DNA of 64,000 nucleotides from a virus (IMGVR_UViG_3300033571_012928:2586-66585); one strand, 5' to 3'; counted from the first letter of the stretch, positions 3,787 to 60,173 are shown. Numbers and translations are program-made. The notes: generated from the sequence alone by a model not told the origin.

Positions 3787-3838
3787 ACAGCATTAGATAC
3801 CAAACGAATTATATAACTACATAATATTTATAAATGTT

Positions 3839-4531: not shown

Positions 4532-4564
4532 GATTTATAAAAAAAAGATATTATATTAATCATT

Positions 4565-4945: not shown

Positions 4946-4946
4946 C

Positions 4947-5342: not shown

Positions 5343-5343
5343 T

Positions 5344-6038: not shown

Positions 6039-6077
6039 TTTGGAATTCTGAAAAATAGATCTTATATTAATAGTATG
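6039..6077 (+). promoter_or_regulatory. class-A promoter-like element
   Basis: TTTGGAATTCTGAAAAATAGATCTTATATTAATAGT immediately upstream of the folE-like start. Confidence 0.4.
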
Positions 6078-22466: not shown

Positions 22467-22467
22467 T

Positions 22468-29634: not shown

Positions 29635-29637
29635 TTT

Positions 29638-32753: not shown

Positions 32754-32790
32754 CTTTGAAATATAAACAAAATTCATTATATTAAATCAT
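32752..32790 (+). promoter_or_regulatory. promoter-like AT-rich element (ATTATATTAA box)
   Basis: TTTGAAATATAAACAAAATTCATTATATTAAATCAT immediately 5' of the ATG. Confidence 0.35.
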
Positions 32791-33411
32791 ATGTCAGACT
32801 TAAACGAAATTATTCAAAAGTATCCTTCATCAGATAAAGGACCTAATTATCACGACTATCTTAAGTTTTATGAAAAACATATTTCAAAGTTTAAGGATTC
32901 CTTAACTAATATGTTAGAAATAGGAGTATATCAAGGAGATAGTATTCGAATGTGGAGAGATTACTTTTCTACAGGTAACTTAGTAGCTATCGACATTCTA
33001 GATCTAAGTCATATTCAACTTCCAAATACAACTATTAAAGTATGTGACCAAGCTGAAAGAAGTCAATTGCAAGAACTAATTGATTCTACATTTAATAGTT
33101 TTGATATTATCATTGACGATGGCGGTCATATGATGCATCAACAACAAATTTCATTAGGATATTTATTTCCATTTTTATCTTCAGGTGGAGTATATGTAAT
33201 TGAAGACTTACATACTTCGGGTCATGGAGCGTATACAAGAGGAGATGCAGATGGTCATATGTTAAACATCTTAAATGAATTTGCTAGTACCGGTAAGATT
33301 ACTAGTAATTTAATGACCGACGAAGAAATTGAGTATATCGAAAACAATACTGAAGTATGTGTTATCGAACAAGGAGCTCAATCTCCTATTGCATTTATTA
33401 TTAAAAAATAA
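32791..33411 (+). CDS. class I SAM-dependent methyltransferase
   Basis: LEIGVYQGDS (motif I) and IIDDGGH (post-I/II) pattern. Confidence 0.6.
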   Translation: MSDLNEIIQKYPSSDKGPNYHDYLKFYEKHISKFKDSLTNMLEIGVYQGDSIRMWRDYFSTGNLVAIDILDLSHIQLPNTTIKVCDQAERSQLQELIDSTFNSFDIIIDDGGHMMHQQQISLGYLFPFLSSGGVYVIEDLHTSGHGAYTRGDADGHMLNILNEFASTGKITSNLMTDEEIEYIENNTEVCVIEQGAQSPIAFIIKK

Positions 33412-34250
33412 TGAGTGCTTGTATTCTATTTGCTTGTACGTGTTTAGATAGAAATAGACTATTCGTAGTTAATGAATTTATCAATGCATTTAAACAAAAT
33501 TTCAGTGATGTAGATATCTATACTGGCATCAACTATGGATCTATAGATGATATAGAAAATATATTAGATGAATCAGGTTTAAACATACAATACAAACGAA
33601 TAGTAGATCCTAAAAAGTATACAGCATCAGATGCGGGTGCGTACCAAATGGCAATTAGGTTATTATTGGATTCAAATAAAGAATATGATAACTATTGGTT
33701 TATTCATACAAAAGGATCTGTAAATGGTCATAGTGATTATTTACGTGGATGGTACATAGAACACTTACTCAATAAACGACAACACGTGGAGTATTTTATG
33801 ACTCATGGTATAGGTAGTTATGGTTTATTAGCTACCTATGCAAATCCATTAGATTTTCCTAGCGAAGACTATAACATTGATATTCCATTGGTATCAAATG
33901 AAATTACAGATGATTTTATATGTACTAAAATGCCATATTTTTATATACATTCAATGTATGTAATAGCTAAAGGCCCAATGTCTGTATTTTTGAAAAGCAT
34001 ATCATATAAATTCTTTGAACATCCATTAAACAAATACTTCTTCGAAGGTGCAATGCCATATATAGCTTCTAGAACAGGATACTTTACTTATGTAGATAAT
34101 ATGGTTAGTGCACATACCGACACGGATCTTCGATTGCCAGCATATGAATGGATCTTACGAAACCAACGAGAAGAATTAACGGGATATTTAACAATGCCCA
34201 TGCGACTATATAAATTTGAACAACTAAACCCACCTTACTTACCATGTTAA
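33411..34250 (+). CDS. hypothetical protein in glycan island
   Basis: ORF. Confidence 0.5.
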   Translation: MSACILFACTCLDRNRLFVVNEFINAFKQNFSDVDIYTGINYGSIDDIENILDESGLNIQYKRIVDPKKYTASDAGAYQMAIRLLLDSNKEYDNYWFIHTKGSVNGHSDYLRGWYIEHLLNKRQHVEYFMTHGIGSYGLLATYANPLDFPSEDYNIDIPLVSNEITDDFICTKMPYFYIHSMYVIAKGPMSVFLKSISYKFFEHPLNKYFFEGAMPYIASRTGYFTYVDNMVSAHTDTDLRLPAYEWILRNQREELTGYLTMPMRLYKFEQLNPPYLPC

Positions 34251-34966
34251 TAGTAACATTAAATCATAACTTACCTAATTGGACTGACAATCTAGTAAGT
34301 CAATTAAAACGAGATCCAATGTTTGCAGAATGCGAACTTATGGTAATAGATAATGGATCTACAGAAACAATTGCTAAATCAACTACGCATCGTTTAGACG
34401 AAAACATATTCTTCGGAGGTGGTATTAATGTAGCGTTAGAATACTTTTTAAGTACCGATCACGAATACATGTATTTTTTAAACAATGACATTGTATTTCA
34501 TGGGCCTAGCTTTTTAACAACCTCAATGAAAGAAGCTAAAGAATCTAATGCTAGTATTTATTCTCCCTCTATTATCAACGCATCAATGGAACAATGTCAT
34601 TGGAAACAAATGTGGAATTGGGGTAAAGGATTGCGTGACGTAAGATGGATTGACTTTCAGGCTCCATTGATTAGAAGAGACATTGCTGAGAAAATAAAAC
34701 AATTTCCAATGGAGTTAATCTATGGATGGGGCACAGATTTTTATGCAGGATGTATTGCGGATACAAATGATCTTAAAATTGTAGTATCTGATACTAATAC
34801 AGTAACTCATATGAATTCTCTTACATTTAAGGAAAATAAAATCAATATTGGAGTTAATGAATTTTGTCAAGAAGCTGAAAGACAAATGTATAGTTTCTTT
34901 AGTAATTCTGAATTTAATTCATTATATTTTGATTTAAGGACATATGGGGAGCAGTATACAGCATGA
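34244..34966 (+). CDS. GT2-like glycosyltransferase
   Basis: LIVTLNHN ... MVIDNGS ... FLNNDIVF follows the GT-A pattern. Confidence 0.5.
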   Translation: MLIVTLNHNLPNWTDNLVSQLKRDPMFAECELMVIDNGSTETIAKSTTHRLDENIFFGGGINVALEYFLSTDHEYMYFLNNDIVFHGPSFLTTSMKEAKESNASIYSPSIINASMEQCHWKQMWNWGKGLRDVRWIDFQAPLIRRDIAEKIKQFPMELIYGWGTDFYAGCIADTNDLKIVVSDTNTVTHMNSLTFKENKINIGVNEFCQEAERQMYSFFSNSEFNSLYFDLRTYGEQYTA

Positions 34967-35592
34967 GACATGACATTTCACAATTAACAGAACAGCTTCA
35001 AAAAGAAGCATTTAAGCCTAGTTCATTTATTGAAATAGGATCGAGAGACGGGCATGATACTAATTACATATGTCAGTATTGGAATTTAGATCCGAATAAC
35101 TGCTATATTATAGAAGCACATCCTAAGTGCTTTGAATTTATTCAACGTACATATCCTCAGTATAAATCATTAAATGTAGCCGCATCAAATAAAACAGATG
35201 TAATTACATTCAATGCAGGTATTATAGGACAAGAACCAAATGTAGGAGTTTCTTCCGTATTAACAAATCCAACGAGTAACTTTATTTCAGAAACTGTAGA
35301 AGTAGATGCATGGCGTATGGAAGATATTATGAATCACTTTAATATAGATAAATTTGACTTTATGAAAATAGATGTCGAAGGCCATGGTTTAGAAGTATTA
35401 AAAGGATTTGGAGATAAAATAAAACAAACTAAGTACATACAAATCGAAGTAGAAACATTAGAAGTATGGACAGGTCAGTCATTACAAGAAGACATTGTAA
35501 ATTATATGGAAACATTAGGATTTGAAATGATTAACGATGTAAACTTAGATGGCATACAACATGACATTTTACTAAAAAACAAATTAATATGA
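34963..35592 (+). CDS. FkbM-family methyltransferase
   Basis: IEIGSRDGHDT ... MKIDVEGHGLEVLKG is characteristic of FkbM MTases. Confidence 0.65.
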   Translation: MRHDISQLTEQLQKEAFKPSSFIEIGSRDGHDTNYICQYWNLDPNNCYIIEAHPKCFEFIQRTYPQYKSLNVAASNKTDVITFNAGIIGQEPNVGVSSVLTNPTSNFISETVEVDAWRMEDIMNHFNIDKFDFMKIDVEGHGLEVLKGFGDKIKQTKYIQIEVETLEVWTGQSLQEDIVNYMETLGFEMINDVNLDGIQHDILLKNKLI

Positions 35593-36656
35593 TATCAATT
35601 ATTATACCAGCACATAACAATTTAAGGCATTTAAAAAATGCATATGCATCAGTAAAGAAACATGCTCCTGAAGCTGAAGTAGTCTTATTAGATGATGCAT
35701 CAACAGACGGAACTTGGGAGTGGATAGAATCATTGAATGATGATAAACTAATTAGTTATAAAAGTCCTACTAGAGATGGTCATACTGTATTGTATGACAT
35801 GGGTATTCAACTAGCTACAAATGACATAGTTGGCATAATGCATGCGGATATGATAATGGGTCCGAATTATGTTGAGAACGTTATAAAGCACTTAAAGCCA
35901 GGTACAGTAGTATGTGCGACTAGGATTGAGCCACCTCTTCATCCTCCGGGAAAAGAAAAGATAATTATGGACTTTGGAATGGACTTTGATTCTTTAAATG
36001 TATTAGGATTTGAACAGTATTGCGATGAATTGCAAATTGAATTTAAAGATCAAACTACAAAAGGAATGTTCGCTCCATGGGTCTTATATAAAGAAGACTT
36101 TGAAAGAATAGGCGGGCATGATTGGGGATTCGCTCCTTTTCCATATGAAGATTCTGATATCTTTCAAAGATGGATATTAGCTGGATATGAACTAGTTCAA
36201 TCTAGAGATGCATTTGTATATCACTTAACATGTAGAGGACATAGATGGACCGGAGAGATTGGTAAGAATGATGATTACTTTACGCATGCTGAGTTCATGG
36301 CTAGAAACTATTACATTAAGAAATGGGGAAGTTGGATTGAAAACAATGAATATGGCCATCCTATTTTAAAGCCAGTATATACTAAATGTGCTATTGTTAA
36401 AAACTATCAATTAACGGTTATGGATCCATGGCTAGGTGATATCAATCCTAAAGATACTAGCAAGTATGATATAGTAGTTGAATTAGATCTTAAAACAGTG
36501 ACTAATGCTGAGTTTACAGCACTAACATATTTAAATGAAATGGTAGCCGAAGCTAATGAATTGGGTACTTATGAAATAGGACTAATGAAAGTACATGTAA
36601 ATTCATTAGAAGATCGTAGCCATGAATTAATACACTGCAACAATGAAGCATCTTAA
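35589..36656 (+). CDS. GT2-family glycosyltransferase
   Basis: ISIIIPAHNNLRHLKNAYASV ... LLDDASTDGT is a classic GT2 start plus DxD. Confidence 0.7.
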   Translation: MISIIIPAHNNLRHLKNAYASVKKHAPEAEVVLLDDASTDGTWEWIESLNDDKLISYKSPTRDGHTVLYDMGIQLATNDIVGIMHADMIMGPNYVENVIKHLKPGTVVCATRIEPPLHPPGKEKIIMDFGMDFDSLNVLGFEQYCDELQIEFKDQTTKGMFAPWVLYKEDFERIGGHDWGFAPFPYEDSDIFQRWILAGYELVQSRDAFVYHLTCRGHRWTGEIGKNDDYFTHAEFMARNYYIKKWGSWIENNEYGHPILKPVYTKCAIVKNYQLTVMDPWLGDINPKDTSKYDIVVELDLKTVTNAEFTALTYLNEMVAEANELGTYEIGLMKVHVNSLEDRSHELIHCNNEAS

Positions 36657-42642: not shown

Positions 42643-43299
42643 ATGAAATTAGTATTAGAGAAAGATCAAAGAGTATTTTTCATTTCAGATACTCATTATA
42701 ATCACGCTAACATTTGCAGTGCCACAACCAAATGGCCGCCATCAGACAAGTATTCTAGTAGAGATTTTCCTTCTCTAGAAGCAATGAACAGTAAATTGGT
42801 TGACAATATCAATTCAGTTGTAGGTCAAAATGATGTATTGTTTCACTTAGGAGATTGGAGCTTTGGAGGATTTGAAAGCATTGAAGATTTCCGCTCTAGA
42901 CTTGTTTGTAAGAACATCCACCTTATCTTGGGTAATCATGATCATCATATTGAGAATAATAAAGGAGACGTTCAAAATCTATTCAAGTCCGTTCATCATT
43001 ATGTTAATCTTAATCTAAAGCGTCCTAGTAGATATGGCAATGGACAAATGGACAAATACAATTTTATTTTATGTCATTTTCCAATTGCTTCTTGGGATAG
43101 AATGAAAGATGGAGTAATTCATTTGCATGGGCATGTTCATTTGCCTCCGCATTATAGAATTGCACAAGGTAGAGCAATGGATGTAGGATGTGAAGGTAGT
43201 GGATTAATGCCGATTGAATTGGAAGAGGTTCTTCGTTTAATGAAGAATCAGCCCGTTAAGGCTTTGAGTTTGCCAATGGATCATCATGAAATGGTTTAA
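42643..43299 (+). CDS. calcineurin-like metallophosphoesterase
   Basis: FISDTHYNH, LGDWSFGG, LGNHDHH, HGHVH metal-binding motifs. Confidence 0.75.
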   Translation: MKLVLEKDQRVFFISDTHYNHANICSATTKWPPSDKYSSRDFPSLEAMNSKLVDNINSVVGQNDVLFHLGDWSFGGFESIEDFRSRLVCKNIHLILGNHDHHIENNKGDVQNLFKSVHHYVNLNLKRPSRYGNGQMDKYNFILCHFPIASWDRMKDGVIHLHGHVHLPPHYRIAQGRAMDVGCEGSGLMPIELEEVLRLMKNQPVKALSLPMDHHEMV

Positions 43300-43304
43300 A
43301 AGTT

Positions 43305-43703
43305 ATGAAAAAAGAAATAATATACACAGAACACTATGCACTTATTGTAAGTGATGAGAAGATTGAAGAGGGTAGTTTTATTTACGAAACAAATATTGGT
43401 GAAGTAAGTAAGGTTGACAAATGGTATTGTGAAATTTTAGAAAAAGGCGTAAAAGTAGAACCTTTTGTTAAAGTAATTGCACACCGACCATTAACAAATG
43501 CACCTATTCTTGAAGGAGTTCCTTTGTTACCTGATATAGCATGGAATGACAATTCAAAACATCCTAAGTATTTTGAGTGTGAAACTATCACAATGAACAA
43601 AGGGTACACTGATAAATCAGATTATCCTTATCAAGAATGTGAAATACCAAAAACAATCACTAACTCACAAGGTCAAACAGAATTAGTAGGAACTTTTTCT
43701 TGA
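43305..43703 (+). CDS. hypothetical protein
   Basis: ORF. Confidence 0.5.
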   Translation: MKKEIIYTEHYALIVSDEKIEEGSFIYETNIGEVSKVDKWYCEILEKGVKVEPFVKVIAHRPLTNAPILEGVPLLPDIAWNDNSKHPKYFECETITMNKGYTDKSDYPYQECEIPKTITNSQGQTELVGTFS

Positions 43704-43705
43704 AT

Positions 43706-43744
43706 TCGGTTGTTTATTTGAAAAAAAGATATTATCTTTATGTT
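43706..43744 (+). promoter_or_regulatory. class-B promoter element (partial)
   Basis: TCGGTTGTTTATTTGAAAAAAAGATATTATCTTTATGTT. Confidence 0.4.
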
Positions 43745-44164
43745 ATGAATAAGGTTTTAGTGATTTTAAGGGGACTTCCGGGAGCTGGTAAGTCTTCATT
43801 TGCTAATTTGATTTGGCAATCAGGAGTTATATTTGAAGCTGATAAGTACTTTATCAACGAAGAAGGTGAGTATGTATTTGATGCTTTTAAATTACCTAAA
43901 GCACATCAGTGGTGTATTCAATCAATTGAAGCTGCTATGAAAAGAAATGAAGAATCAAATGGTCAATACTTTTCAGAAATAGTAGTTTCAAATACAACTA
44001 CTACCGAGAAAGAAATGCAACCTTATTTAGACTTAGCTAAGGCATATGGATATAATGTTGTTTCTTTGATTGTAGAAAATAGACATGGTAATGTTTCAGT
44101 ACATGGAGTTGCTGAAGAAACAATGGATAAAATGGAAAAACGTTTTGAAATAAAATTACGATAA
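43745..44164 (+). CDS. P-loop kinase (polynucleotide/nucleoside kinase-like)
   Basis: VLVILRGLPGAGKSSFA Walker A; ~140 aa kinase-domain size; start set at the ATG after the promoter box. Confidence 0.55.
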   Translation: MNKVLVILRGLPGAGKSSFANLIWQSGVIFEADKYFINEEGEYVFDAFKLPKAHQWCIQSIEAAMKRNEESNGQYFSEIVVSNTTTTEKEMQPYLDLAKAYGYNVVSLIVENRHGNVSVHGVAEETMDKMEKRFEIKLR

Positions 44165-44168
44165 GAAA

Positions 44169-45017
44169 ATGTTAACATTAAATTTAATAAATCAACTTAA
44201 ATCTGATATCAAATATGAAATCAGTAAGTTCCCTGATGGTCAGCAATCAATTGTATTGACAGATTACAATCATTTAGACCGTTATTCCGATGCAATATCT
44301 ATTAAGACTAGAATCAATTCATTTTTAGACTTAGAAATTTTAATATGTGCAACTCAAGCGCTTCGTACTATTACAGATAGACCAATTGCATTATATGTGC
44401 CATATTTCCTAGGATCAAGGTCAGATCGTAAATTTGTAGACGGCGGAGTAAATTATTTGAAGCAAGTAATTAGTCCTATCATTAATTCATTGGATTTTAC
44501 TAGAGTCGTTGTATTAGATCCTCACTCAGATGTATTAGAAGCTTGTTTAAACAACTTTGAAAAAGCAGATAATCATTTAATTGTTAAATATGCATTGGAA
44601 GACTTAGGCGTAATTAATTCAGTAGATGAGGTTTGTTTAGTTAGTCCCGATGCAGGTGCATATAAAAAGATTTTTGATGTTGCTCGTAAATTTGGTATTG
44701 AAAAGATTATCACTGCAACCAAAGTACGAGATATGAAGACAGGTAATATTCTTCATACTGAGATTCCAGTTTTAGATCAGCATGAAGATCTTAAGTATAT
44801 TATCATCGATGACATTTGCGATGGCGGTAGAACATTTGTTGAATTAGCCAAGGCAATCAAAGCAGGTCGACCAACGGCTAAGATTTACCTAATTGTAACA
44901 CATGGTATCTTTAGTGCAGGATATGACCAATTGAGTGAGTATGTTGATCGAGTTTATACTACCAATTCATATAAAGACATTGATCATTCATTTGTACAAC
45001 AATATACTGTAATCTAA
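44169..45017 (+). CDS. ribose-phosphate pyrophosphokinase (PRPP synthetase)-like; candidate ADPR-pyrophosphate synthetase (Adps)
   Basis: IIIDDICDGGRTFVELAKAIKAG equals the Prs PRPP-binding loop (VLVDDMIDTGGT); 282 aa. Confidence 0.6.
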   Translation: MLTLNLINQLKSDIKYEISKFPDGQQSIVLTDYNHLDRYSDAISIKTRINSFLDLEILICATQALRTITDRPIALYVPYFLGSRSDRKFVDGGVNYLKQVISPIINSLDFTRVVVLDPHSDVLEACLNNFEKADNHLIVKYALEDLGVINSVDEVCLVSPDAGAYKKIFDVARKFGIEKIITATKVRDMKTGNILHTEIPVLDQHEDLKYIIIDDICDGGRTFVELAKAIKAGRPTAKIYLIVTHGIFSAGYDQLSEYVDRVYTTNSYKDIDHSFVQQYTVI

Positions 45018-45019
45018 TT

Positions 45020-45538
45020 ATGATAAATTACGTAGACGGCGATGTAGTTAAACTAGCCAAAGAAGGAGCATTTGATGTAGTAGTACATGGATGTAATTGT
45101 TTAAGCACTATGGGTGCGGGAGTAGCGCCTCAAATGGCTAAAGCATTTGGGTGTGATAAATTTGAAATGGAAAGGTCAGGTCCATCGATACATAAACTAG
45201 GTAATATCGACTATGAGACTTTGTATTTTGAAGATAACAAAACTTGGACTAAATACCCGGACGAAGGTGGAAAGTGGGCTACAATTAAATTAACAGTAGT
45301 AAATGCTTATACACAGTACATGTATGGACGCAACCATGTTGACGGTGTAGCAGCGCCATTCGACTATGAAGCATTTACCGTCTGTATGAGAAAGATGAAT
45401 CATATTTTTAAAGGTAAGCATATTGGAATGCCTAAGATTGGCTCGCATTTAGCCGGCGGCGATTGGGAACAAATAGAAGAGATTATCGGAATAGAATTAT
45501 CAGATTGTAAAGTAACAGTTGTAAATTATAAACCATGA
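45020..45538 (+). CDS. Macro-domain protein
   Basis: VVHGCNCLSTMGAGVAPQMAKAFG matches the macro N(x)6GGGV ADP-ribose-binding pattern. Confidence 0.6.
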   Translation: MINYVDGDVVKLAKEGAFDVVVHGCNCLSTMGAGVAPQMAKAFGCDKFEMERSGPSIHKLGNIDYETLYFEDNKTWTKYPDEGGKWATIKLTVVNAYTQYMYGRNHVDGVAAPFDYEAFTVCMRKMNHIFKGKHIGMPKIGSHLAGGDWEQIEEIIGIELSDCKVTVVNYKP

Positions 45539-45942
45539 TGCAAGACCATATTAACGTAGATCGAATTATAGGAATTCGAATTTATGACGAACGGGGTGCA
45601 GCTTATAAATGGCTACCAGCTAAACAAAAAACTACATTCTTTGGACTTATTAAATTAAACAAATGGTATTCGGAAGGGTTTTATGCCTATGGATGTTATG
45701 AAGAAGGTTATGGAGATTCGAGTTGGGATTCTAGTGCATACACAGAAAGCGAATTAATACAACGAGATTACTTAGTAAGAGGTAAGGATGTATTTCATAA
45801 ACCATATGTTATTGTGTATTTGCAAGATGATATTTCAATATCAAAAAAGTTTAACACATTACATGAAGCCCAATCATGGGTCGAACAATTGAAATCAAAA
45901 TGTAAAAATCAATTTGAAATTATAAACTATGAAAGTATTTAA
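45535..45942 (+). CDS. hypothetical protein
   Basis: ORF. Confidence 0.5.
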   Translation: MMQDHINVDRIIGIRIYDERGAAYKWLPAKQKTTFFGLIKLNKWYSEGFYAYGCYEEGYGDSSWDSSAYTESELIQRDYLVRGKDVFHKPYVIVYLQDDISISKKFNTLHEAQSWVEQLKSKCKNQFEIINYESI

Positions 45943-46423
45943 ACCAAATGACCTGTATCAAGAAGTACCTGAGAATACGGTATCTGTATTTTTAGCAGGA
46001 TCCATTGAAATGGGCACAGCTGAAGATTGGCAAAGCAAAGTACAAGAACAACTTAAGTACAGTGACATTGTAATTTTTAATCCACGTCGTGATGATTGGG
46101 ATTCATCTTGGGTACAACAACAGTCTAATCCACAATTTAATCATCAAGTAAATTGGGAAATGGATAAGCTTGAAGATGCAGACATTATCTTTATGTATCT
46201 CTCTCCTGAAACTAAATCTCCTATTTCATTATTGGAATTAGGATTACATGCTAATGACAGAAAAATGATTGTATGTTGTCCAGATGGATTTTGGAGAAAA
46301 GGAAACGTAGACATTGTATGTACTCGAAATAACATTCAGTGCTTTACTAATATCGACGATGCAATTGGAGCTCTTCGAACTAGGATTGCAATGGAAAAAG
46401 CAATTCGAAACTCATTATACTAA
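45929..46423 (+). CDS. nucleoside 2-deoxyribosyltransferase-like protein
   Basis: VFLAGSIEMGTAEDW ... FNPRRDDWD resembles the NDT-family Rossmann-like core. Confidence 0.4.
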   Translation: MKVFKPNDLYQEVPENTVSVFLAGSIEMGTAEDWQSKVQEQLKYSDIVIFNPRRDDWDSSWVQQQSNPQFNHQVNWEMDKLEDADIIFMYLSPETKSPISLLELGLHANDRKMIVCCPDGFWRKGNVDIVCTRNNIQCFTNIDDAIGALRTRIAMEKAIRNSLY

Positions 46424-46424
46424 A

Positions 46425-46492
46425 CTTTTTTAACATTTCGGTTGATCTTTTGAAATAAAGCTATTATCTTTATAGCATAATAAGAAAAATAT
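46425..46492 (+). promoter_or_regulatory. class-B conserved intergenic promoter element
   Basis: TTTTAACATTTCGGTTGATCTTTTGAAATAAAGCTATTATCTTTATAGCATAATAAG. Confidence 0.5.
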
Positions 46493-47989
46493 ATGAATCC
46501 ACTTTTATTAACAGATGGTTACAAAACGGGTCACCATCAGCAGTACCCAAAAGGAACTACATTAGTTTATTCTAATTTTACTCCTCGTTCAAATAAATAC
46601 GCTCCTAAAGGTTGCAATGAAGTAGTTGTATTTGGTACACAAATGGTTATGCAACAAATTCACGAAGCATTTAAAAAAGATTTCTTTAGTAGACCTAAAG
46701 AAGAAGTATGCGGAGAAATGAAACGTGAGTTGTCAATGTATTTAGGTACTGACTATGATGTAAGTCATTTTGAAGCATTACATGATTTAGGTTGTTTACC
46801 TATTAGTGTTAAAGCATTGCCCGAAGGTAGTAAGGCTCCTATTAAAGTTCCTGTATTAACTATTCATAACACTCATCCGGACTTTTATTGGGTTACGAAT
46901 TATTTAGAGACTATCTTGTCTAACTTGTTATGGAAGCCAATGACGTCAGCAACTATTGCTCATCAGTATCGTAAAGTATTGACCAAGTGGATGGAAAAGA
47001 CCGACAAAGAAAGAGCATGGTTTATTGATTGGCAGGGTCATGACTTTTCAATGAGAGGAATGGATTCTGCGGAAGCAACTATTGCATCTGGTTTAGGTCA
47101 CTTAACTTCATTTTTAGGATCAGATTCATTACCAACTATTTATGGTGCTAGAAAGTATTACGATGCTGAAGGAATGGTTTGTGGCTCTGTAAATGCTACC
47201 GAGCATAGTGTAATGTGTGCTGGCGGTAAGGAAGATGAAGTTGACACATTCCGTAGATTGTTAGAAACTTATCCAACAGGTATTTTATCAGTTGTATCTG
47301 ATACTTGGGACTTGTGGAAAGTATGTACCGAGCATGTAGTTACTTTGAAAGAAGAAATTATAGCTCGCGATGGTAAGTTGGTTATTCGTCCTGATAGCGG
47401 TGATCCGGCTGATATTTTATGTGGCTTAAACACAGCAAGCTCAATGTGGACAAAGGATATCACAATGAAACCTGAGTGGAAGGGTGTTATTGAATTACTT
47501 TGGGATGTATTTGGTGGGACAGTAAACGAACAAGGTTATAAAGTTCTTGATAGTCACATTGGAGCAATCTACGGTGATTCAATTACCATTGATAGAGCAG
47601 ATGAAATTTGTAGACGTTTAGAGGCTAAAGGGTTTGCTTCAACTAACGTAGTATTAGGTATTGGTTCATTTACTTACCAATACAATACTAGAGATACATT
47701 TGGATTCGCAATGAAGGCTACCTATGTTGAAGTTAATAAGCCTAAGTTTGAAGGCGACTTTAATCCTGAGGGTAGAGAGATTTTCAAAGATCCTATCACC
47801 GATGATGGTACTAAGAAATCAGCAACCGGGTTGTTAGCTGTATTTGAAAATGAAGTAAATGGTACCTATGAACTAGTTGATCATTGCGATTGGAATACAG
47901 AGAACCGCGGTGAATTGAAAGTTATTTATGAGAACGGTAAGTTTGATAATAGAGTAACTTTAGAAGAAATCAGAGAACGTTTAAAATAA
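46493..47989 (+). CDS. nicotinamide phosphoribosyltransferase (NAMPT/NadV)-family protein; candidate Namat
   Basis: N-terminal LLLTDGYKTGHHQQYP matches the NadV TDSYK.THyxQYP motif; 498 aa. Confidence 0.75.
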   Translation: MNPLLLTDGYKTGHHQQYPKGTTLVYSNFTPRSNKYAPKGCNEVVVFGTQMVMQQIHEAFKKDFFSRPKEEVCGEMKRELSMYLGTDYDVSHFEALHDLGCLPISVKALPEGSKAPIKVPVLTIHNTHPDFYWVTNYLETILSNLLWKPMTSATIAHQYRKVLTKWMEKTDKERAWFIDWQGHDFSMRGMDSAEATIASGLGHLTSFLGSDSLPTIYGARKYYDAEGMVCGSVNATEHSVMCAGGKEDEVDTFRRLLETYPTGILSVVSDTWDLWKVCTEHVVTLKEEIIARDGKLVIRPDSGDPADILCGLNTASSMWTKDITMKPEWKGVIELLWDVFGGTVNEQGYKVLDSHIGAIYGDSITIDRADEICRRLEAKGFASTNVVLGIGSFTYQYNTRDTFGFAMKATYVEVNKPKFEGDFNPEGREIFKDPITDDGTKKSATGLLAVFENEVNGTYELVDHCDWNTENRGELKVIYENGKFDNRVTLEEIRERLK

Positions 47990-48037
47990 GTTTACAAAGC
48001 ATTAGGAATTACGAAAAATAAATATTAAATTTATGAT

Positions 48038-48460
48038 ATGAAAAAGTTTATATACTTAGACGATGTAAGAACTCCTAATGACGAAGGTTGGGTTGTAGTT
48101 AGAAACTATGACGAATTTGTAAATACAATTACCGAAATTGGTCTAGAGAATATTGAGCTTATATCTCTAGACCATGATTTGGGTGATACTGCCATGATGG
48201 AATGGCATACTAATGTTGCTCGTAACTTTACTTTGAACTATGATAATATCAAAGAAAAGACAGGAATGGATTGTACTAAATGGTTAGTAGAACAGTGGAT
48301 GAATGGCGCACCTGTATGTAAAGTAATGGTACATTCAGCTAATGCAATCGGATCCGCTAACATGATGGGTTATATCAATAACTTTAAACACATTAGTAGA
48401 TTGAATCAAGATTGTGGTAGATGGATTGTTCCTCATACAATCGAAACTGTAATTGACTAA
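48038..48460 (+). CDS. hypothetical protein
   Basis: ORF; IYLDDVR ... ISLDHDLGD segments of unknown function. Confidence 0.5.
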   Translation: MKKFIYLDDVRTPNDEGWVVVRNYDEFVNTITEIGLENIELISLDHDLGDTAMMEWHTNVARNFTLNYDNIKEKTGMDCTKWLVEQWMNGAPVCKVMVHSANAIGSANMMGYINNFKHISRLNQDCGRWIVPHTIETVID

Positions 48461-48485
48461 AAAATAAATTAATAAAATTAACGAA

Positions 48486-49625
48486 ATGGAAAATCAAAAT
48501 AGTGTATGCTACGTAGCAAGAATAGGTGAAGTTAAACCTATCGAAGGAGCTGATAATATTGAACAAGCATTCGTAGGAGGATGGAGTTGTATTGTCCCAA
48601 AGGGTCAATATAAACAAGGATATTTGGCTGTTATAGCAACTACCGATGCAGTTATTCCTCAAGAATTATCAGATCTAATGAATGTAACCAATTACTTGCG
48701 TAAAGGTCAAAGAGTAAGAACGGTTAAGTTGAGAGGTGTTTATTCAGAATGTTTAATTATTCCTTTTGATAAATTACTTTTACCTAAAACATTCGTAGAT
48801 AATGTTAAAGAAGGTAAGGACATGATGGAAATGTTAGGTATCTACAAATATGAACCACCTGCGGTACAAGTACAATTGGCATCTGGTCGTAAAGTTAAGT
48901 ATCATCAGAATCCTAATTTTGGTATTTACTATAAATTTCCTAATTTGAAAAACGTACCCGGCATGTATTCAAATGAAGATGAAGTAGAAATTACTAGAAA
49001 AATTCATGGTACTAATGCTCGTTATGGTATTGTAAAGAAAAAGTCTTTGTCATTCTGGGATAAAGTTAAAAAGTTTTTGAGATTAGCTGATGAGTTCATT
49101 GAATATGAATATGTATATGGATCCCATAACGTAGAAAAAGGATCTGACTCTCAAGGATTTTATGACACTGATGTATGGAAGACCGTAGCTGAAAAGTATA
49201 ACATAAGAGAAAACTTATGGAACTTATTCAAGTCAGTTAAAGATGTATACAGTATTGAGCAAGGATTTGTAATCTATGGAGAGATCTATGGTCCAGGTAT
49301 TCAAAAGAATTTTGACTATGGTTTAAAAGAAATTGAATACGCAGGATTTGATGTAACCATCGATGGGGAGTACTGTGACTGTAAAAGAAGTTTCATGCTT
49401 CATAACATATTAGGTTTAGATTATGTACCTGTTTTATACTATGGAAACTGGTCTCAAGAAACTCAAGACAAGTATGTATTTAACAATTTCATCGAAGGCA
49501 CTAAAGTTCCTCACGAAGGCATTGTAATTAAGCCAATAGATGGTAATAGACATAAAGTAGCTAAGGTAATCAATCCGGATTATTTAATCTATGGAGAGAA
49601 ACATAACGTAGGAGATTCACATTAA
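48486..49625 (+). CDS. RNA ligase (Rnl2-like nucleotidyltransferase) with N-terminal extra domain
   Basis: KIHGTNARYG is identical to the T4 Rnl2 motif I lysine-adenylylation site (KIHGTN). Confidence 0.65.
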   Translation: MENQNSVCYVARIGEVKPIEGADNIEQAFVGGWSCIVPKGQYKQGYLAVIATTDAVIPQELSDLMNVTNYLRKGQRVRTVKLRGVYSECLIIPFDKLLLPKTFVDNVKEGKDMMEMLGIYKYEPPAVQVQLASGRKVKYHQNPNFGIYYKFPNLKNVPGMYSNEDEVEITRKIHGTNARYGIVKKKSLSFWDKVKKFLRLADEFIEYEYVYGSHNVEKGSDSQGFYDTDVWKTVAEKYNIRENLWNLFKSVKDVYSIEQGFVIYGEIYGPGIQKNFDYGLKEIEYAGFDVTIDGEYCDCKRSFMLHNILGLDYVPVLYYGNWSQETQDKYVFNNFIEGTKVPHEGIVIKPIDGNRHKVAKVINPDYLIYGEKHNVGDSH

Positions 49626-50280: not shown

Positions 50281-51432
50281 ATGAGCATAGTTCAAAATTC
50301 AAATGAATTCAACATTGCGGATGTAACCGCAACTTATTCAAGGTTACCGAAAGGTAATTATCTTCTTCGTTATGATCAGCGTAAGGGATATTATTTAACA
50401 AAGACTACAGATTTCAAATTGCCTAGTAAATTATATGGCGATCATGGTATTGTTGATAGATGGTTATCATCTTGGAATCATAATACTAACAAGAACATGG
50501 GTATTATTTTATCAGGTACTAAAGGTACTGGTAAAACTATTACCGCCCAGAAGTTTTGTTTAGATTCTGAGTTACCTGTTATTATCATTAACGAAGGATT
50601 TTCGGGTAGTGACTTTGTAGAATTTATAACCAATGAAGTTATGGGACAGTGTATCATTTTTATTGATGAGTTTGAAAAGGTTTATCCTAGATACAGTGGT
50701 AAAGCAGATGCATCTGATTTGTTATCTATCATGGATGGTAATTTCACTACCAGATTAGTATTTCTATTAACAGTTAATGAATTTGAAATCAGTGATTACT
50801 TGATTAATCGTTTAAGTCGTGTTAAGTATAGAAAAGACTACAATAACTTATCTGATGCAGATATGCAGGAAGTTATTAATGACATGCTCGATAATAAAGA
50901 TCATGCTGATAGTATCTATGAGTTCTTTGATACGGTAGGTATTAGAACGTATGACTTATTAACTAATTTGATTAAGGAAATGAACCTATTCAAAGAAGAT
51001 GCAATTGCAGTGGGTATGCATTTGAATCTTCAGCCATCACCTAAAAAGTATACAGTGTATGAATTGCATGATGGTACTGAATTTAGTTGTTATGAATGTG
51101 AGTATAAAGCTAAGACCGAATTGATTAGAATTGAGCGTAAGTCAATGAAATACTTAACAGCTAAAAGAATTGCATTAGGATTAGATGCTTCAGATGAGTA
51201 TGACGAAGATGAAGATGACGATGAATTGACATTGCCATCACTTGGCATTGAAGAAGAAAATGACGATAGTAATCCTAATGTAGTTTTAGATGCAATGGGT
51301 TGGGTAGCGAAGATGCGTAGAGAAGATTGTAAAATCGAACGTCATGGAGTTGATAATATTCTTATTACACATATTCCATCTGGGTGTGTATTTAGATTAA
51401 AAGAAGCTACTAAAACTTATATGGCTTTTTAA
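50281..51432 (+). CDS. AAA+ ATPase with acidic linker
   Basis: Walker A ILSGTKGTGKTITA, Walker B IIFIDEFEK; DEYDEDEDDDE tract. Confidence 0.65.
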   Translation: MSIVQNSNEFNIADVTATYSRLPKGNYLLRYDQRKGYYLTKTTDFKLPSKLYGDHGIVDRWLSSWNHNTNKNMGIILSGTKGTGKTITAQKFCLDSELPVIIINEGFSGSDFVEFITNEVMGQCIIFIDEFEKVYPRYSGKADASDLLSIMDGNFTTRLVFLLTVNEFEISDYLINRLSRVKYRKDYNNLSDADMQEVINDMLDNKDHADSIYEFFDTVGIRTYDLLTNLIKEMNLFKEDAIAVGMHLNLQPSPKKYTVYELHDGTEFSCYECEYKAKTELIRIERKSMKYLTAKRIALGLDASDEYDEDEDDDELTLPSLGIEEENDDSNPNVVLDAMGWVAKMRREDCKIERHGVDNILITHIPSGCVFRLKEATKTYMAF

Positions 51433-51434
51433 TT

Positions 51435-51797
51435 ATGAAAACGATTGCTTGTATTGCCCATGATGGTAAGAAACCTGAAATGGTTAGATTTGTTCATAAA
51501 CATCATGACATTCTTAAAAATTATAATCTTATTGCCACGGGCACTACGGGTACTCATATTGAACAAGTAGGTGACTTAACTGTCACAAAATACAAAAGCG
51601 GTCCGTTAGGTGGGGATGCACAAATTGCTTCGTTAGTTGTCGAAGGTAAAGTTGATTTGGTTGTATTTTTAGTTGATCCATTAGATGTGCATCCTCACCA
51701 GGTTGACGTAAGCATGTTAGTACGTATCTGCAATGTACACGACATTCCATTAGCTACAAATGTAGCAACTGCGGAACTGTTGTTAAAAGCTCTTTAA
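51435..51797 (+). CDS. mgsA: methylglyoxal synthase-like protein
   Basis: IATGTTG, SGPLGGDAQI, DPLDVHPHQVDV and LATNVATA each match E. coli MgsA (YATGTTG, SGPMGGDQQ, DPLNAVPHDPDV, VATNVATA). Confidence 0.75.
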   Translation: MKTIACIAHDGKKPEMVRFVHKHHDILKNYNLIATGTTGTHIEQVGDLTVTKYKSGPLGGDAQIASLVVEGKVDLVVFLVDPLDVHPHQVDVSMLVRICNVHDIPLATNVATAELLLKAL

Positions 51798-51854: not shown

Positions 51855-52559
51855 ATGAAAACATTAGTTATATCAGATCTTCATATAGGATCAAAAGGAT
51901 GTCAAACGGAGGCTATTTTAAATTTACTATCAGATGAAACATATGACCGATACATATTAGTAGGTGATATTATCGATGGTTGGTTGTTTGTTAAGTATAA
52001 ACGATTTACATATGAACATGCTCGTGTAATTCGTAGACTACTTAAATTATCAAAAGACAAAGAAATTATTTGGATATCAGGCAATCATGATGAGTTCTTG
52101 CGTAAGTATTCTCCGTTAGAATTAGGTAACATTAAGATTGTAGATGAGTATACAGAACATGGCATATGGTTTTGTCATGGCGATATGTATGATGGAGTAG
52201 TTAAACTACATTGGTTAGGAGTATTAGGATCCGTTGGATATGATACGGCAATAGTAATAGATCGATGGTTAAAAAAATTAGGATACAAAAGAAGCTTATC
52301 TAAGTTTTTAAAGAAAAATGTAAAAGCTGCAGTTTCATTTATTGTTGATTTTGAAAATGAAATGGTTAGACAAGCTAAAAAGCGTCAGTGCCATACGATA
52401 GTATGTGGTCATTTACATAATCCTGAAGATAAAATAGTTAACGGAGTTCGTTATATCAATGATGGCGATTGGGTTGAAAATTGCTCTTATGTTGTGTATG
52501 AAACAAAAAAATACAATTTAGACAATCCAATACTAACATTATGTACTCAAAAAAATTAA
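51855..52559 (+). CDS. calcineurin-like metallophosphoesterase
   Basis: LVISDLHIGSKG, GDIIDGW, GNHDE, GHLHNP. Confidence 0.7.
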   Translation: MKTLVISDLHIGSKGCQTEAILNLLSDETYDRYILVGDIIDGWLFVKYKRFTYEHARVIRRLLKLSKDKEIIWISGNHDEFLRKYSPLELGNIKIVDEYTEHGIWFCHGDMYDGVVKLHWLGVLGSVGYDTAIVIDRWLKKLGYKRSLSKFLKKNVKAAVSFIVDFENEMVRQAKKRQCHTIVCGHLHNPEDKIVNGVRYINDGDWVENCSYVVYETKKYNLDNPILTLCTQKN

Positions 52560-53254
52560 CCATCGTAATACCAACGTACAATGAATCTAAATACATTGCA
52601 CGTACATTATTAGAAATTGTTAAACAATCTGGAACATATGGCGTGCAAATAATCATTGCCGATGCTAATTCTACCGACAATACTAGAAATGTAATTAAAG
52701 AAACAGCTAAAAAGTTAAAACTTAAAGTTAGAATTATCAAAGGCGGTATGCCAGCCGTTGGTAGAAATGCGGGAGCGGCACTAGCAACTACGCCATATGT
52801 ATTGTTTGTGGATGCAGATGTTAAGTTTACTAATAGATATGCTATTAAATCTGCAATGCAATGCATTGAAGAAGACTATGATATGGTTACTACCAATCCT
52901 GTATATGATGGCGAACCTGATATACGAGCACGTATCATGTTTATGATAAACAAGTATATTACATTGGCGATGTCTAAACATACTCCATTTGCTATAGGAG
53001 CATTTACATTGGTCAAGTTAAGTAAGTTTGTTGAGTTAGGTGGATATGATGTAAATGCATATCAAAGCGAAGATTGGCTTTTAAGTAAACAAGTAGCTAC
53101 AAATAAGTTTAAAGTAATTACTGATTTAATAACGCAGGATAATCGCAGATTTAAACGATTCGGATATATGGCTATGATTAAAATGTTATATTCAAATTGG
53201 ATCAATAGAAATAACATTAATCACTTTTACAAGGACAATGGTTACTGGAAATAA
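52541..53254 (+). CDS. GT2-family glycosyltransferase
   Basis: LTIVIPTYNESKYIARTL and VDADV DxD motif. Confidence 0.65.
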   Translation: MYSKKLTIVIPTYNESKYIARTLLEIVKQSGTYGVQIIIADANSTDNTRNVIKETAKKLKLKVRIIKGGMPAVGRNAGAALATTPYVLFVDADVKFTNRYAIKSAMQCIEEDYDMVTTNPVYDGEPDIRARIMFMINKYITLAMSKHTPFAIGAFTLVKLSKFVELGGYDVNAYQSEDWLLSKQVATNKFKVITDLITQDNRRFKRFGYMAMIKMLYSNWINRNNINHFYKDNGYWK

Positions 53255-53318
53255 AAGTTAACTTTTCGGTTGATCTTTTGAAATAATGATATTATCTTTA
53301 TATCATAATAAGAAAGAT
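53253..53318 (+). promoter_or_regulatory. class-B conserved intergenic promoter element
   Basis: AAAAGTTAACTTTTCGGTTGATCTTTTGAAATAATGATATTATCTTTATATCATAATAAGAAAG. Confidence 0.5.
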
Positions 53319-54044
53319 ATGCCAAGAATTTACAAAGTAGGTGGTTGCGTTAGAGATAGGTTATTAGAGATCGAATCTAAAGACATTGATTTTACCTTCG
53401 TATTAGACAACTTAGACAGAACCGTCGAAGAAGGTTTTGATATTATGACTAATTGGTTAGAACATAAAGAATTTACTATCTTTTTATCTACTCCAGAATG
53501 TTTTACTATTAGAGCTAAGTTTCCAAATGGTCATCAATACGAAGGAATGGTAGCTGATTTTGTATTGGCTCGTAAAGAAGTAGGATATGTACCTGGTACC
53601 AGAAGACCAATTTTAGAATTAGGTACGTTAGAAGATGACTTAAGGCGCAGAGACTTTACCTTAAATGCTTTAGCTGAAGATGAGGACGGAAACATTATTG
53701 ATTTGTTTGGAGGTATTGAAGATTTAAAGCGTGGTTATTTAAGAACACCATTACCATGTACCGATACTTTCAATGACGATCCGCTTCGTATTTTGAGAGC
53801 AATTCGTTTTTGTATTACTAAAGGATTTTGGATTGGACCTGCAATGGATGGAATTATCCAAGACTATGATTATGAAACTAAAATGACTGTAGTATCAATT
53901 GAACGGATCCGAGAAGAATTGTATAAGTGTTTCAAACATGATACTTTAAAGACTCTTAAAACATTACATGAGTATCCAGCTTTGAGAAACTATATTTTCG
54001 AATCAGGTGCATTGTGGTTGAAGCCAACCATGGAAAAAAGTTAA
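53319..54044 (+). CDS. Pol-beta-superfamily nucleotidyltransferase, CCA-adding enzyme / poly(A) polymerase head-domain-like
   Basis: MPRIYKVGGCVRDRLL equals the tRNA-NT GGxVRD motif; start moved from 53286 because the earlier ATG lies inside the promoter repeat. Confidence 0.55.
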   Translation: MPRIYKVGGCVRDRLLEIESKDIDFTFVLDNLDRTVEEGFDIMTNWLEHKEFTIFLSTPECFTIRAKFPNGHQYEGMVADFVLARKEVGYVPGTRRPILELGTLEDDLRRRDFTLNALAEDEDGNIIDLFGGIEDLKRGYLRTPLPCTDTFNDDPLRILRAIRFCITKGFWIGPAMDGIIQDYDYETKMTVVSIERIREELYKCFKHDTLKTLKTLHEYPALRNYIFESGALWLKPTMEKS

Positions 54045-55388: not shown

Positions 55389-56240
55389 ATGAATCCATTA
55401 ATTAAGATTGCTGCTATACTAGGTATAGTATTAGTAGCGGGTTTCACAGTCATTGGTTTAGAAAGAATCGATGCAGGTCATGTAGGTATCAAAGTTAATT
55501 TGATTGGTACTGGTAAGGGAGTAGATAATGCAACCGAAGTTACAGGTTGGGTGTTCTATAACCGATTTACAACTAAAATTGTTGAGTTTCCGACATTTGT
55601 ACAGCATAAAGAGTACAAGAAAGAAGGAGATGTAGACGAGTCGTTTGTAATTAACTCTAAAGATGGATCGGAGTTTCATGTAGGTCCTTTATTAAACTAT
55701 TCAGTGCAGCGTGAGAAAGTTCCTTATATCTTTACTAAATATAGAGTTGAATTAGGTGCTATTGAAGCCGGATTTTTAAAGACTGCCATTTACGATGCAT
55801 TTAGAGTAGTAGCAAATAGTTATACCGCAGATGAATTAATTAGTAATAGAGAACAATTTGAAATTAAAGTTAGAAAGAACCTAGAAAGTCATTTATTACC
55901 TGAAGGATTTATATTAGCTCAATTTACATCTAATTTGGTTTATCCAGAAACATTCAAGAAAGCAATTGAAGCTAAGAACAATGCAGTTCAGACAGCATTG
56001 AGAGCTGAGAATGATGTTAAGACAGCAGAGGCACAGGCTAAGATTAAAATTGCTCAGGCAGAAGGTAATGCTCGAGCAATGTTAACGAATGCTAAGGCAG
56101 AGGCAGAAGCTAACAAATTGAAACAAACCACTTTGACCCCATTGTTATTGCAACAAATGTGGATTCAAAAATGGAATGGTGTATTGCCATCGACTCAATT
56201 AGGCGCTGGTACGAACATGATGTATAATTTAGGAAAGTAA
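55389..56240 (+). CDS. SPFH/Band-7 (prohibitin/HflK-like) membrane protein
   Basis: N-terminal TM, SPFH-like core, and C-terminal AEAQAKIKIAQAEGNARAM coiled coil typical of HflK/C. Confidence 0.6.
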   Translation: MNPLIKIAAILGIVLVAGFTVIGLERIDAGHVGIKVNLIGTGKGVDNATEVTGWVFYNRFTTKIVEFPTFVQHKEYKKEGDVDESFVINSKDGSEFHVGPLLNYSVQREKVPYIFTKYRVELGAIEAGFLKTAIYDAFRVVANSYTADELISNREQFEIKVRKNLESHLLPEGFILAQFTSNLVYPETFKKAIEAKNNAVQTALRAENDVKTAEAQAKIKIAQAEGNARAMLTNAKAEAEANKLKQTTLTPLLLQQMWIQKWNGVLPSTQLGAGTNMMYNLGK

Positions 56241-59220: not shown

Positions 59221-59428
59221 AGTAGGTGATAAGTTAGAGGCACTTGATTGGCATAAAGATGAGTATGGTCTTAAGTATGTAACTATTACGTCAATCAATG
59301 AAGATACCGAAGTGTATCATTGGGTGGCAAATGAAACTAAGTTTGACTTGGGAGGTAAAATCAGTTCAGGATACTTTTTTAAAGATGCAATAGAATACAA
59401 AGAAAATGAAAACAATATTATTAGGTGA
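59201..59428 (+). CDS. hypothetical small protein
   Basis: ORF. Confidence 0.45.
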   Translation: MMKAKFKVGDKLEALDWHKDEYGLKYVTITSINEDTEVYHWVANETKFDLGGKISSGYFFKDAIEYKENENNIIR

Positions 59429-60173
59429 CACCCACGGTCGAGATACGTGGAAACAAATTATTGAGAAAGAACATGATGCAGATCGTATCGTATTTATAGG
59501 AGACTACTTTGACTCATTTGACATCCCTGGAGTAGTACAACTTCAGAACTTTCTAGACATTGTCGAGTTCAAAAAGAATTCAGAAAAAGAAGTAGTATTA
59601 TTATTTGGTAATCATGATTATCATTACATGCCTGGATTTACAGGTATAGGATATTCAGGCTATCAATCAGGATTGGCTTATCAATTTAGGGAAGCCATTG
59701 GACAGAACTTAGAGCATTTTCAAATGACTTATTTGTTTGATAATGTATTATGTAGTCATGCCGGTATTAGTCCTGAATGGTTAGAGCGTTCATTTGGTAA
59801 ACCCAATGATGAATCAGAACATAACTGGAATGTTGATACAATAGATGGTATTAAGAATGTTGTTGAATTAATCAATGAGTATTTCAAATACAAACCATCG
59901 ATATTTGAATTTAACGGATGGGATCCTTATGGTGATAATACTTATCAAACACCTATTTGGATTAGACCTAGATCTTTAATGGCATCAAATAAAGACTCCG
60001 GATTGAAAAAGAATATTACTCAAGTAGTAGGTCATACCGGCGTAACAAACATATTCGAATCAGTTAAGGCATCTGAAAAAGCAATGGGCGGAAAGTATTA
60101 CTTGATCGATGCAATTGAATCAAAGGGCTATTTAATTTACGAAGACAATTCATTTAAACCAGAACAATTATGA
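59406..60173 (+). CDS. Ser/Thr-phosphatase-like metallophosphoesterase
   Basis: ILLGDTHGR, GDYFD, GNHD, SHAGI motifs. Confidence 0.7.
   Translation: MKTILLGDTHGRDTWKQIIEKEHDADRIVFIGDYFDSFDIPGVVQLQNFLDIVEFKKNSEKEVVLLFGNHDYHYMPGFTGIGYSGYQSGLAYQFREAIGQNLEHFQMTYLFDNVLCSHAGISPEWLERSFGKPNDESEHNWNVDTIDGIKNVVELINEYFKYKPSIFEFNGWDPYGDNTYQTPIWIRPRSLMASNKDSGLKKNITQVVGHTGVTNIFESVKASEKAMGGKYYLIDAIESKGYLIYEDNSFKPEQL

Follow-up and report, generated by a model that had tools for sequence, protein, structure and literature searches.

The locus studied here raises the question whether a large phage genome encodes a genuine methylglyoxal synthase (MgsA), and which role such an enzyme could play during infection. 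The stretch of viral DNA that was analysed, 64 kb in length, is referred to as the window. The original prediction described a stand-alone MgsA homologue within it, located next to an AAA+ ATPase and a metallophosphoesterase gene. The ORF was recovered exactly as predicted, and the features of the window that are discussed below are collected in Table 1.

Table 1. Position, strand and supporting matches of the features discussed, in order along the window.
Feature	Position	Strand	Details
Radical-SAM, weak match	2989-3786	+	
YciA-like hotdog thioesterase	4947-5342	+	
GTP cyclohydrolase I	6075-6716	+	174 bits
Glycan/sugar-nucleotide island	21081-36656	+	about 16 co-directional genes
NAD-salvage and RNA-repair block	42643-49625	+	syntenic in L083
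Calcineurin-like metallophosphoesterase (first of three separate genes)	42643-43299	+	
AAA ATPase (phrog_2376)	50281-51432	+	Pfam AAA 41.3 bits; phrog_2376 218.5 bits
mgsA, short-form methylglyoxal synthase (EC 4.2.3.3, predicted by homology)	51435-51797	+	120-aa ORF, ATG start
Calcineurin-like metallophosphoesterase (second), downstream of mgsA	51855-52559	+	Pfam Metallophos 54 bits
Family-2 glycosyltransferase (GT2), overlaps the phosphoesterase gene end	52541-53254	+	Pfam Glycos_transf_2 89.5 bits
tRNA nucleotidyltransferase (CCA-adding type)	53286-54044	+	phrog_24229, 212 bits
SPFH/Band-7 family protein, 3.6 kb downstream of mgsA	55389-56240	+	Pfam 65 bits; phrog_200 'lipoprotein' 206 bits
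Calcineurin-like metallophosphoesterase (third)	59406-60173	+	

The translated ORF was compared with family profiles and with sequences of known structure. It scored 55.6 bits against the Pfam MGS profile (PF02142, cut-off 24.1), the check that the original prediction had proposed, and it passed the NCBIfam equivalog models NF003559 (168 bits, cut-off 84) and TIGR00160 (166.3 bits, cut-off 146.9). A phmmer search of the PDB sequences returned MgsA chains only, with E-values ranging from 2.5e-39 (Borrelia, 8u2v) to 1.8e-27, and E. coli MgsA (1b93) was matched with E=5.7e-29. All four quoted signature blocks are found in the translation when compared with E. coli MgsA, namely IATGTTG versus YATGTTG (6/7 identical), SGPLGGDAQI versus SGPMGGDQQV (7/10), DPLDVHPHQVDV versus DPLNAVPHDPDV (7/12) and LATNVATA versus VATNVATA (7/8). 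The claim that the protein matches its E. coli counterpart almost residue for residue holds for these motifs but is overstated for the whole protein, which shows 45% identity. As judged by sequence comparison, homology of the ORF to MgsA is far beyond chance, and the gene very probably encodes a methylglyoxal synthase, with both the enzyme identity and the reaction on dihydroxyacetone phosphate (DHAP) predicted by homology.

An AlphaFold2 monomer model built on 41 sequences (mean pLDDT 90.7, pTM 0.86) was used to compare the product with MgsA and with other proteins of the MGS fold. The model superimposes on the MgsA structures of Bacillus subtilis (6f2c), Thermus (1wo8) and Borrelia (8u2v) with a TM-score of 0.95 and an rmsd of about 1.0 Å. 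For E. coli MgsA (1b93), the TM-score is 0.93-0.94 and the rmsd is likewise about 1 Å, the identity to true MgsA structures being 44-56%. The original prediction had considered that the protein might better match the MGS-like domains of CarB or PurH. These share the superfamily fold (PF02142 covers both), but function as regulatory or IMP-cyclohydrolase modules within large proteins (CarB/CPS1 and PurH/ATIC), whereas the window MgsA is stand-alone. TM-scores were 0.66-0.73 for CarB/CPS1 and 0.61 for PurH, with rmsd above 3 Å and 12-21% identity for the CarB/CPS1 and PurH/ATIC domains. A CarB/PurH-type domain was rejected given these scores, compared to 0.95 for true MgsA, and given the equivalog models passed.

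The active site was examined in E. coli numbering (Ec), which can be transferred to the window enzyme because the E. coli reference sequence is identical to PDB 1b93 over 152/152 residues. The catalytic and active-site residues of the two enzymes correspond one to one (D61=D71, H88=H98, H9=H19, D10=D20, D81=D91 and D91=D101, window residue first), and so do the phosphate-binding residues (K13=K23, T35=T45, T37=T47, T38=T48, S55=S65 and G56=G66). H19, D20, K23, T45, T48, S65, G66, D71, D91, H98 and D101 (E. coli numbering) are invariant among 38 aligned homologues; window T37, replaced by Ser in a few of them, is the only pocket residue that varies. The catalytic Asp/His region is thus retained as claimed, and the loss of these residues that was named as a possible objection is not seen.

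E. coli MgsA (1b93, 1egh, 1ik4) serves as the mechanistic reference and has the same fold and catalytic residues, but the window enzyme lacks its 10-residue N-terminal extension and its C-terminal tail of roughly 25 residues, which bears Arg150. Phosphate (Pi) inhibits methylglyoxal synthase allosterically, and it has been suggested that the enzyme acts under phosphate deficiency; two allosteric routes have been described, Asp20-Arg150 and Pro92/Arg107/Val111 (PMC4133812). In E. coli MgsA, the inter-subunit salt bridge between Arg150 and Asp20 leads to cooperative phosphate inhibition; the Thermus enzyme, which likewise lacks the Arg150 tail, is inhibited by Pi with lower cooperativity (nH 1.5) (PMC4133812). 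The window enzyme retains the second route (P82, R97 and V101, equivalent to Ec P92, R107 and V111). Since the Arg150 tail is absent and the Pro-Arg-Val route is kept, as in Thermus, Pi inhibition with weaker cooperativity is expected. The closest known systems are therefore the short-form enzymes of Thermus thermophilus and Thermus sp. GH5 (1wo8, 2x8w), B. subtilis (6f2c) and Borrelia burgdorferi (8u2v), which share a core of about 120-126 aa with 50-56% identity, a TM-score of 0.95 and an rmsd of about 1 Å, identical catalytic and phosphate-binding residues, the Pro/Arg/Val route and the lack of an Arg150 tail. Unlike these bacterial enzymes, the window enzyme is phage-encoded and has Gln-Val instead of Glu/Asp-Pro after the active-site His.

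The window genome is almost certainly of phage origin. Nearly all ORFs of at least 90 aa are located on the + strand, all predicted genes share one strand, GC content is 30-36% throughout the 64-kb window and coding density is about 86% over the whole window. Phage genes flank mgsA on the same strand over 51 kb upstream and 12 kb downstream, making it an auxiliary metabolic gene (AMG) within a bona fide viral genome with viral genes on both sides. The window encodes a T4-type family-B DNA polymerase (phrog_262, 595 bits), of which the nearest cultured relative belongs to Microcystis phage Mel-JY01 (40% identity), followed by those of T4-like cyanophages and Caulobacter phage Cr30 (about 30% identity). 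The exact MgsA protein was found on four contigs, the longest of which is a 175,196-bp metagenomic scaffold (ENA ERZ28594331 scaffold_29) with the same neighbours. A chimeric scaffold is unlikely because this arrangement recurs on four independent contigs. No match to GenBank phages was obtained by megablast with the 6 kb around mgsA, which leaves no closely related cultured phage as a source of annotation.

It could be argued that the gene does not belong to a phage: mis-assembly or misclassification of a contig might have placed a bacterial mgsA there, or the ORF might be no more than a CarB/PurH-type MGS-like domain. Such artefacts do exist, as illustrated by three inspected GenBank 'phage' contigs labeled UNVERIFIED that carry bacterial-type MgsA. 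In the window, this explanation has to account for a gene surrounded by 64 kb of phage genes that share one direction and a uniform composition, for the same arrangement on four contigs including the 175-kb scaffold, and for two syntenic viral contigs, L001 and L083, that carry mgsA in the same place, after an RNA ligase; moreover, the CarB and PurH domains match far worse. We regard it as extremely improbable and as effectively refuted already. The presence of a stand-alone MgsA homologue in a phage, the central claim of the original prediction, is supported by both equivalog models and by a genome that is genuinely that of a phage.

Whether such a gene is unusual in phages depends on the collection that is searched. 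PHROGs contains no family matching MgsA and BFVD no MgsA-like structure. A tblastn search of GenBank phages with MgsA gave 22 hits, all unannotated. As evidence from cultured phages these were rejected, as the three hits inspected were UNVERIFIED contigs with bacterial-type sequences (one Firmicute-type, one with the catalytic Asp missing and one with the bacterial-type motif PHDPDV). An UNVERIFIED human-gut 'Bacteriophage sp.' scaffold of 102 kb (L167, MT835478.1) encodes an MgsA-like protein at 6001-6354 that has another residue instead of the catalytic Asp (GGAQQ versus GGDQQ), with SGP changed to AGH and the PH motif to SH; its sequence indicates that it is probably a non-catalytic MgsA paralogue.

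In IMG/VR, at least 80 contigs encode relatives of the window MgsA (50-83% identity), and many of these contigs are clearly phage. L001 shares 27 syntenic genes with the window, L083 has the gene order NAMPT, cREC, RNA ligase, mgsA as in the window, and a Gp23 major-capsid gene is located at most 5 kb from mgsA in 10/49 distinct viral loci. In many of the other loci, a large freshwater group among them, the distance from mgsA to a DNA polymerase B gene is about 6 kb. Virome surveys list mgsA as an AMG in Lake Baikal, on a 120-kb Cr30-like scaffold that recruited up to 8.8% of the virome reads of this oligotrophic lake (PMC8066274), in a deep-sea brine pool (bioRxiv 10.1101/2024.01.25.577265) and in plastisphere viromes (PMC12397222). 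Compared by description, these belong to the same gene family on uncultured viral contigs, and the Lake Baikal scaffold is large and T4-like, as is the window genome. The surveys assign the gene to propanoate or methane metabolism based on KEGG (PMC8066274; 10.1101/2024.01.25.577265; PMC12397222). In the literature searched, viral mgsA appears only as such a KEGG-labelled AMG, with no analysis of function, residues, structure, phylogeny, selection or neighbourhood. The gene is thus unusual, as originally stated, for cultured and curated phages, a statement that needs qualification in view of the uncultured viruses in IMG/VR and these surveys. Phage mgsA is rare and so far uncharacterised in viruses.

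The origin of the gene was addressed with neighbor-joining (NJ) trees that combined 45 distinct MgsA sequences from viruses with 80 from bacteria. All viral sequences fall in one clade beside the MgsA of Bacteroidota, with 0/80 bacterial sequences inside. A single capture of mgsA is suggested by this topology but not claimed, because bootstrap support for the viral clade is only 37% (500 replicates). The viral copies probably share an origin near Bacteroidota mgsA, and by sequence the window gene appears to be derived from a Bacteroidota-type mgsA. Its nearest cellular kin are the chromosomal MgsA proteins of Flavobacteriaceae, Saprospiraceae and Cyclobacteriaceae (about 120 aa, 58-66% identity), which differ in their chromosomal rather than phage context and in the motif PHEPD[IV] or PHEVDV, compared to PHQVDV in the window.

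This kinship is also a clue to the host of the T4-like phage, which is probably a member of the Bacteroidota. Further host clues are a related 203-kb phage-like contig with a CHU_C-domain gene beside mgsA, and the absence of Shine-Dalgarno enrichment upstream of start codons in the window (11/82 versus a background of 12%). TAnnTTTG, a promoter motif of Bacteroidota, was enriched neither in intergenic regions nor on one strand of the window.

In the phage lineages, mgsA is kept by strong purifying selection, with dN/dS values of 0.06 (window versus L001), 0.03 (window versus L083) and 0.07 (L001 versus L083), all at saturated dS. At the same time, it is an accessory gene with a sporadic distribution. 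Among 69 viral contigs that carry the closest homologues of the RNA ligase and at least 4 kb of downstream sequence, none (0/69) has mgsA within 10 kb. Because of this sporadic occurrence, the function of mgsA must be dispensable.

Viral and bacterial enzymes differ directly after the active-site His, where window residues 89-90 are QV and the bacterial enzymes have E/D-P. Val90 is present in 41/45 viral versus 14/80 bacterial sequences, a residue other than Glu at position 89 in 40/45 versus 4/80, and the QV pair in none of the 80 nearest bacterial genomes. Viral enzymes mostly have Gln-Val or Asp-Val, bacteria Glu/Asp-Pro and Saprospiraceae Glu-Val. No strictly virus-specific residue was found among the 45 viral and 80 bacterial sequences, and the QV and DV motifs mark sub-clades. 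Model confidence is also lowest in this loop (block mean pLDDT 69), and the divergence of the loop combined with this low confidence makes altered kinetics or specificity possible. One could go further and propose that the viral clade is a neofunctionalised MGS-fold enzyme with a shifted substrate or reaction, such as the elimination of phosphate from another ketose phosphate. The two altered residues and the low model confidence of the loop would suit this proposal. The residues known for DHAP/phosphate binding or catalysis are nevertheless all unchanged, the score exceeds a strict equivalog cut-off, the backbone deviates by about 1 Å from true MgsA and Saprospiraceae MgsA has Val at position 90 as well, which makes a new activity very unlikely.

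The gene neighbourhood was examined for partners. Both neighbours named in the original prediction are present on either side of mgsA. The link to mgsA that their mention implied is not conserved, as neither gene lies next to mgsA in L001 or L083, its closest relatives. The stop codon of the AAA ATPase gene precedes the mgsA start by 2 nt, so co-transcription of the two is probable; the ATPase occurs in 1/80 RNA-ligase-related loci. The downstream metallophosphoesterase resembles LpxH, YfcE and PdeM and scores below every NCBIfam equivalog cut-off. A homologue (51% identity) is located 1.6 kb downstream of mgsA in the distant locus L074, which is the only one to repeat the order mgsA, phosphoesterase, GT2. 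A scan for sigma-70 promoters and terminators around mgsA gave no signal above shuffled sequences.

ORFs within 5 kb of mgsA were clustered for 49 distinct viral loci, and no universal neighbour was found. Partial associations were observed with a small RfaE-II/TagD-like nucleotidyltransferase (10/49 loci), thymidylate synthase (thyA, 9/49), a dTDP-glucose-4,6-dehydratase-like enzyme (7/49), a cREC domain protein (7/49) and a YciA-like thioesterase (4/49). With partial associations and no universal partner, mgsA resides in a variable accessory region rather than in a fixed operon. Nucleotide, NAD, RNA-repair and sugar genes are abundant in this region. Five freshwater-type viral contigs of up to about 179 kb (L028, L035, L060, L070 and L076) have a recurrent four-gene arrangement, in which mgsA is followed by an 80-aa ORF, the RfaE-II/TagD-like nucleotidyltransferase and the dTDP-glucose-4,6-dehydratase-like gene (319 bits, below the cut-off of 365). 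It extends from about +0.4 to +2.1 kb relative to mgsA, with a DNA polymerase B gene about 6 kb away. A homologue of the SPFH/Band-7 protein of the window (62% identity) is located near mgsA in another viral locus (L011).

Several other gene groups of the window deserve description. The NAD-salvage and RNA-repair block comprises a metallophosphoesterase, an AAA_33 kinase, a PRPP-synthetase-like protein, a nucleoside 2-deoxyribosyltransferase-like protein, NAMPT (phrog_448, 661 bits), a cREC_REC cyclic-phosphate-processing domain protein and an RNA ligase, and resembles counter-defence or tRNA-repair modules. The glycan island, which is unusually large for a phage and might target the host surface, the virion or DNA, contains two large glycosyltransferases, several GT2s, an SDR, a hexapeptide acyltransferase, a PIG-L deacetylase, a DUF6492 protein, an NAD epimerase/dehydratase, a PseB/CapD-like 4,6-dehydratase (Polysacc_synt_2, 266 bits), two Methyltransf_24 proteins, an FkbM methyltransferase and a GtrB-like GT. 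The genes at 2989-6716 possibly contribute to a 7-deazaguanine/queuosine-type modification. No tRNA genes were detected in the 64-kb window with ARAGORN, despite the presence of a tRNA nucleotidyltransferase.

The recurrence of sugar-related genes near mgsA could indicate that MgsA feeds a pathway, either by providing a C3 unit (methylglyoxal, then lactaldehyde, lactate or acetol) or by redirecting triose phosphate, destined for phage glycan, sugar-nucleotide or DNA-modification chemistry. The nucleotidyltransferase association points in this direction, since in 5 of the 10 loci concerned the gene is located 0.6 kb downstream of mgsA and is directly followed by the dTDP-glucose-4,6-dehydratase-like gene. 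So do the YciA-like thioesterase, which directly follows mgsA in L026, L031 and L074 and has a homologue in the window, and the window GT2 located 1.1 kb downstream together with the glycan island of roughly 15 kb at 21-37 kb. Each of these partners is however found in a fifth of the loci or fewer, the window has no nucleotidyltransferase of this type, and none of these genes accompanies mgsA in L001 or L083. Proximity may also reflect a common hypervariable accessory region, which equally holds thyA and cREC. We know of no pathway in which methylglyoxal is a precursor for glycans or DNA modification, and we consider a pathway-feeding function improbable.

Phosphate liberation and host shut-off were the candidate roles named in the original prediction. 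The role that we favour, although tentatively, is phosphate release combined with triose-phosphate overflow. By homology, MgsA would convert DHAP to enol-pyruvaldehyde and then methylglyoxal, with release of inorganic phosphate; Asp61 (Ec Asp71) would act as the base, and Lys13, Thr35/37/38 and Ser55-Gly56 would form the phosphate pocket. During infection, the enzyme could function as an overflow valve that drains triose phosphate. When free Pi is low, it would be relieved of inhibition and free phosphate from sugar phosphates, and this phosphate might support heavy phage nucleotide synthesis in nutrient-poor waters. The allosteric inhibition of methylglyoxal synthase by Pi and the read recruitment by the mgsA scaffold of oligotrophic Lake Baikal are in line with this role. 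Several observations weigh against such a role. The triose-phosphate pool is a small phosphate source compared to the need of a 175-kb phage burst, and supporting pathway context is missing, as no pho-regulon gene and no glyoxalase, DJ-1, aldo-keto reductase or other methylglyoxal-detoxifying gene was found among roughly 50 annotated ORFs of the window. In addition, mgsA is dispensable whatever its function.

The main rival to the phosphate/overflow role is that the toxic product itself is the purpose, with methylglyoxal serving as a deliberate electrophile against host growth, macromolecular synthesis or competing processes, or against co-infecting phages or neighbouring cells after lysis. 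An enzyme that appears fully active by sequence would be suited to this task, and the same lack of a detoxifying gene among the annotated window ORFs, together with a missing Arg150 tail, from which less cooperative inhibition by Pi is expected, as for the Thermus enzyme, is in line with it. Proteins and nucleic acids are glycated by methylglyoxal (PMC13641704). The product would, however, also harm the DNA, nucleotides and proteins of the phage, for which no means of self-protection was identified; mgsA is moreover located among nucleotide, NAD and RNA-repair accessory genes and not among recognisable host-takeover genes. The sporadic distribution of mgsA fits a toxic-product role and a phosphate role alike. 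On this evidence, we consider the toxic-product role rather unlikely.

A broader version of this idea is that the viral MgsA forms a distinct lineage, marked by Val after the active-site His and spread in T4-like phages that infect Bacteroidota and further aquatic hosts, that acts as a deliberate metabolic weapon or switch. Conversion of DHAP to methylglyoxal would then uncouple glycolysis and free phosphate, and carbonyl stress would block host functions or defences, to which modified phage DNA or rapid kinetics would give tolerance. We regard this scenario as unlikely. The best overall explanation, which we consider reasonably probable, is that of a catalytically competent MgsA encoded by an accessory gene of a T4-like phage, for which a role in phosphate release or overflow is tentatively favoured. 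The gene would be of Bacteroidota type and now circulate among diverse T4-like phages under purifying selection.

The enzyme as such is well understood, and what is new is its genomic setting; the finding extends a known AMG phenomenon, with no new mechanism. The viral copies of MgsA are intact by sequence, subject to purifying selection and recurrent in many large T4-like phages, which raises the question why a virus keeps an enzyme with a toxic product. The answer would show how phages in nutrient-poor waters handle phosphate and the flux of central carbon, or whether carbonyl stress takes part in the takeover of the host. If the weapon or switch scenario were true, takeover by the phage would include a toxic electrophile as a programmed component, beyond a side effect of phosphate salvage.
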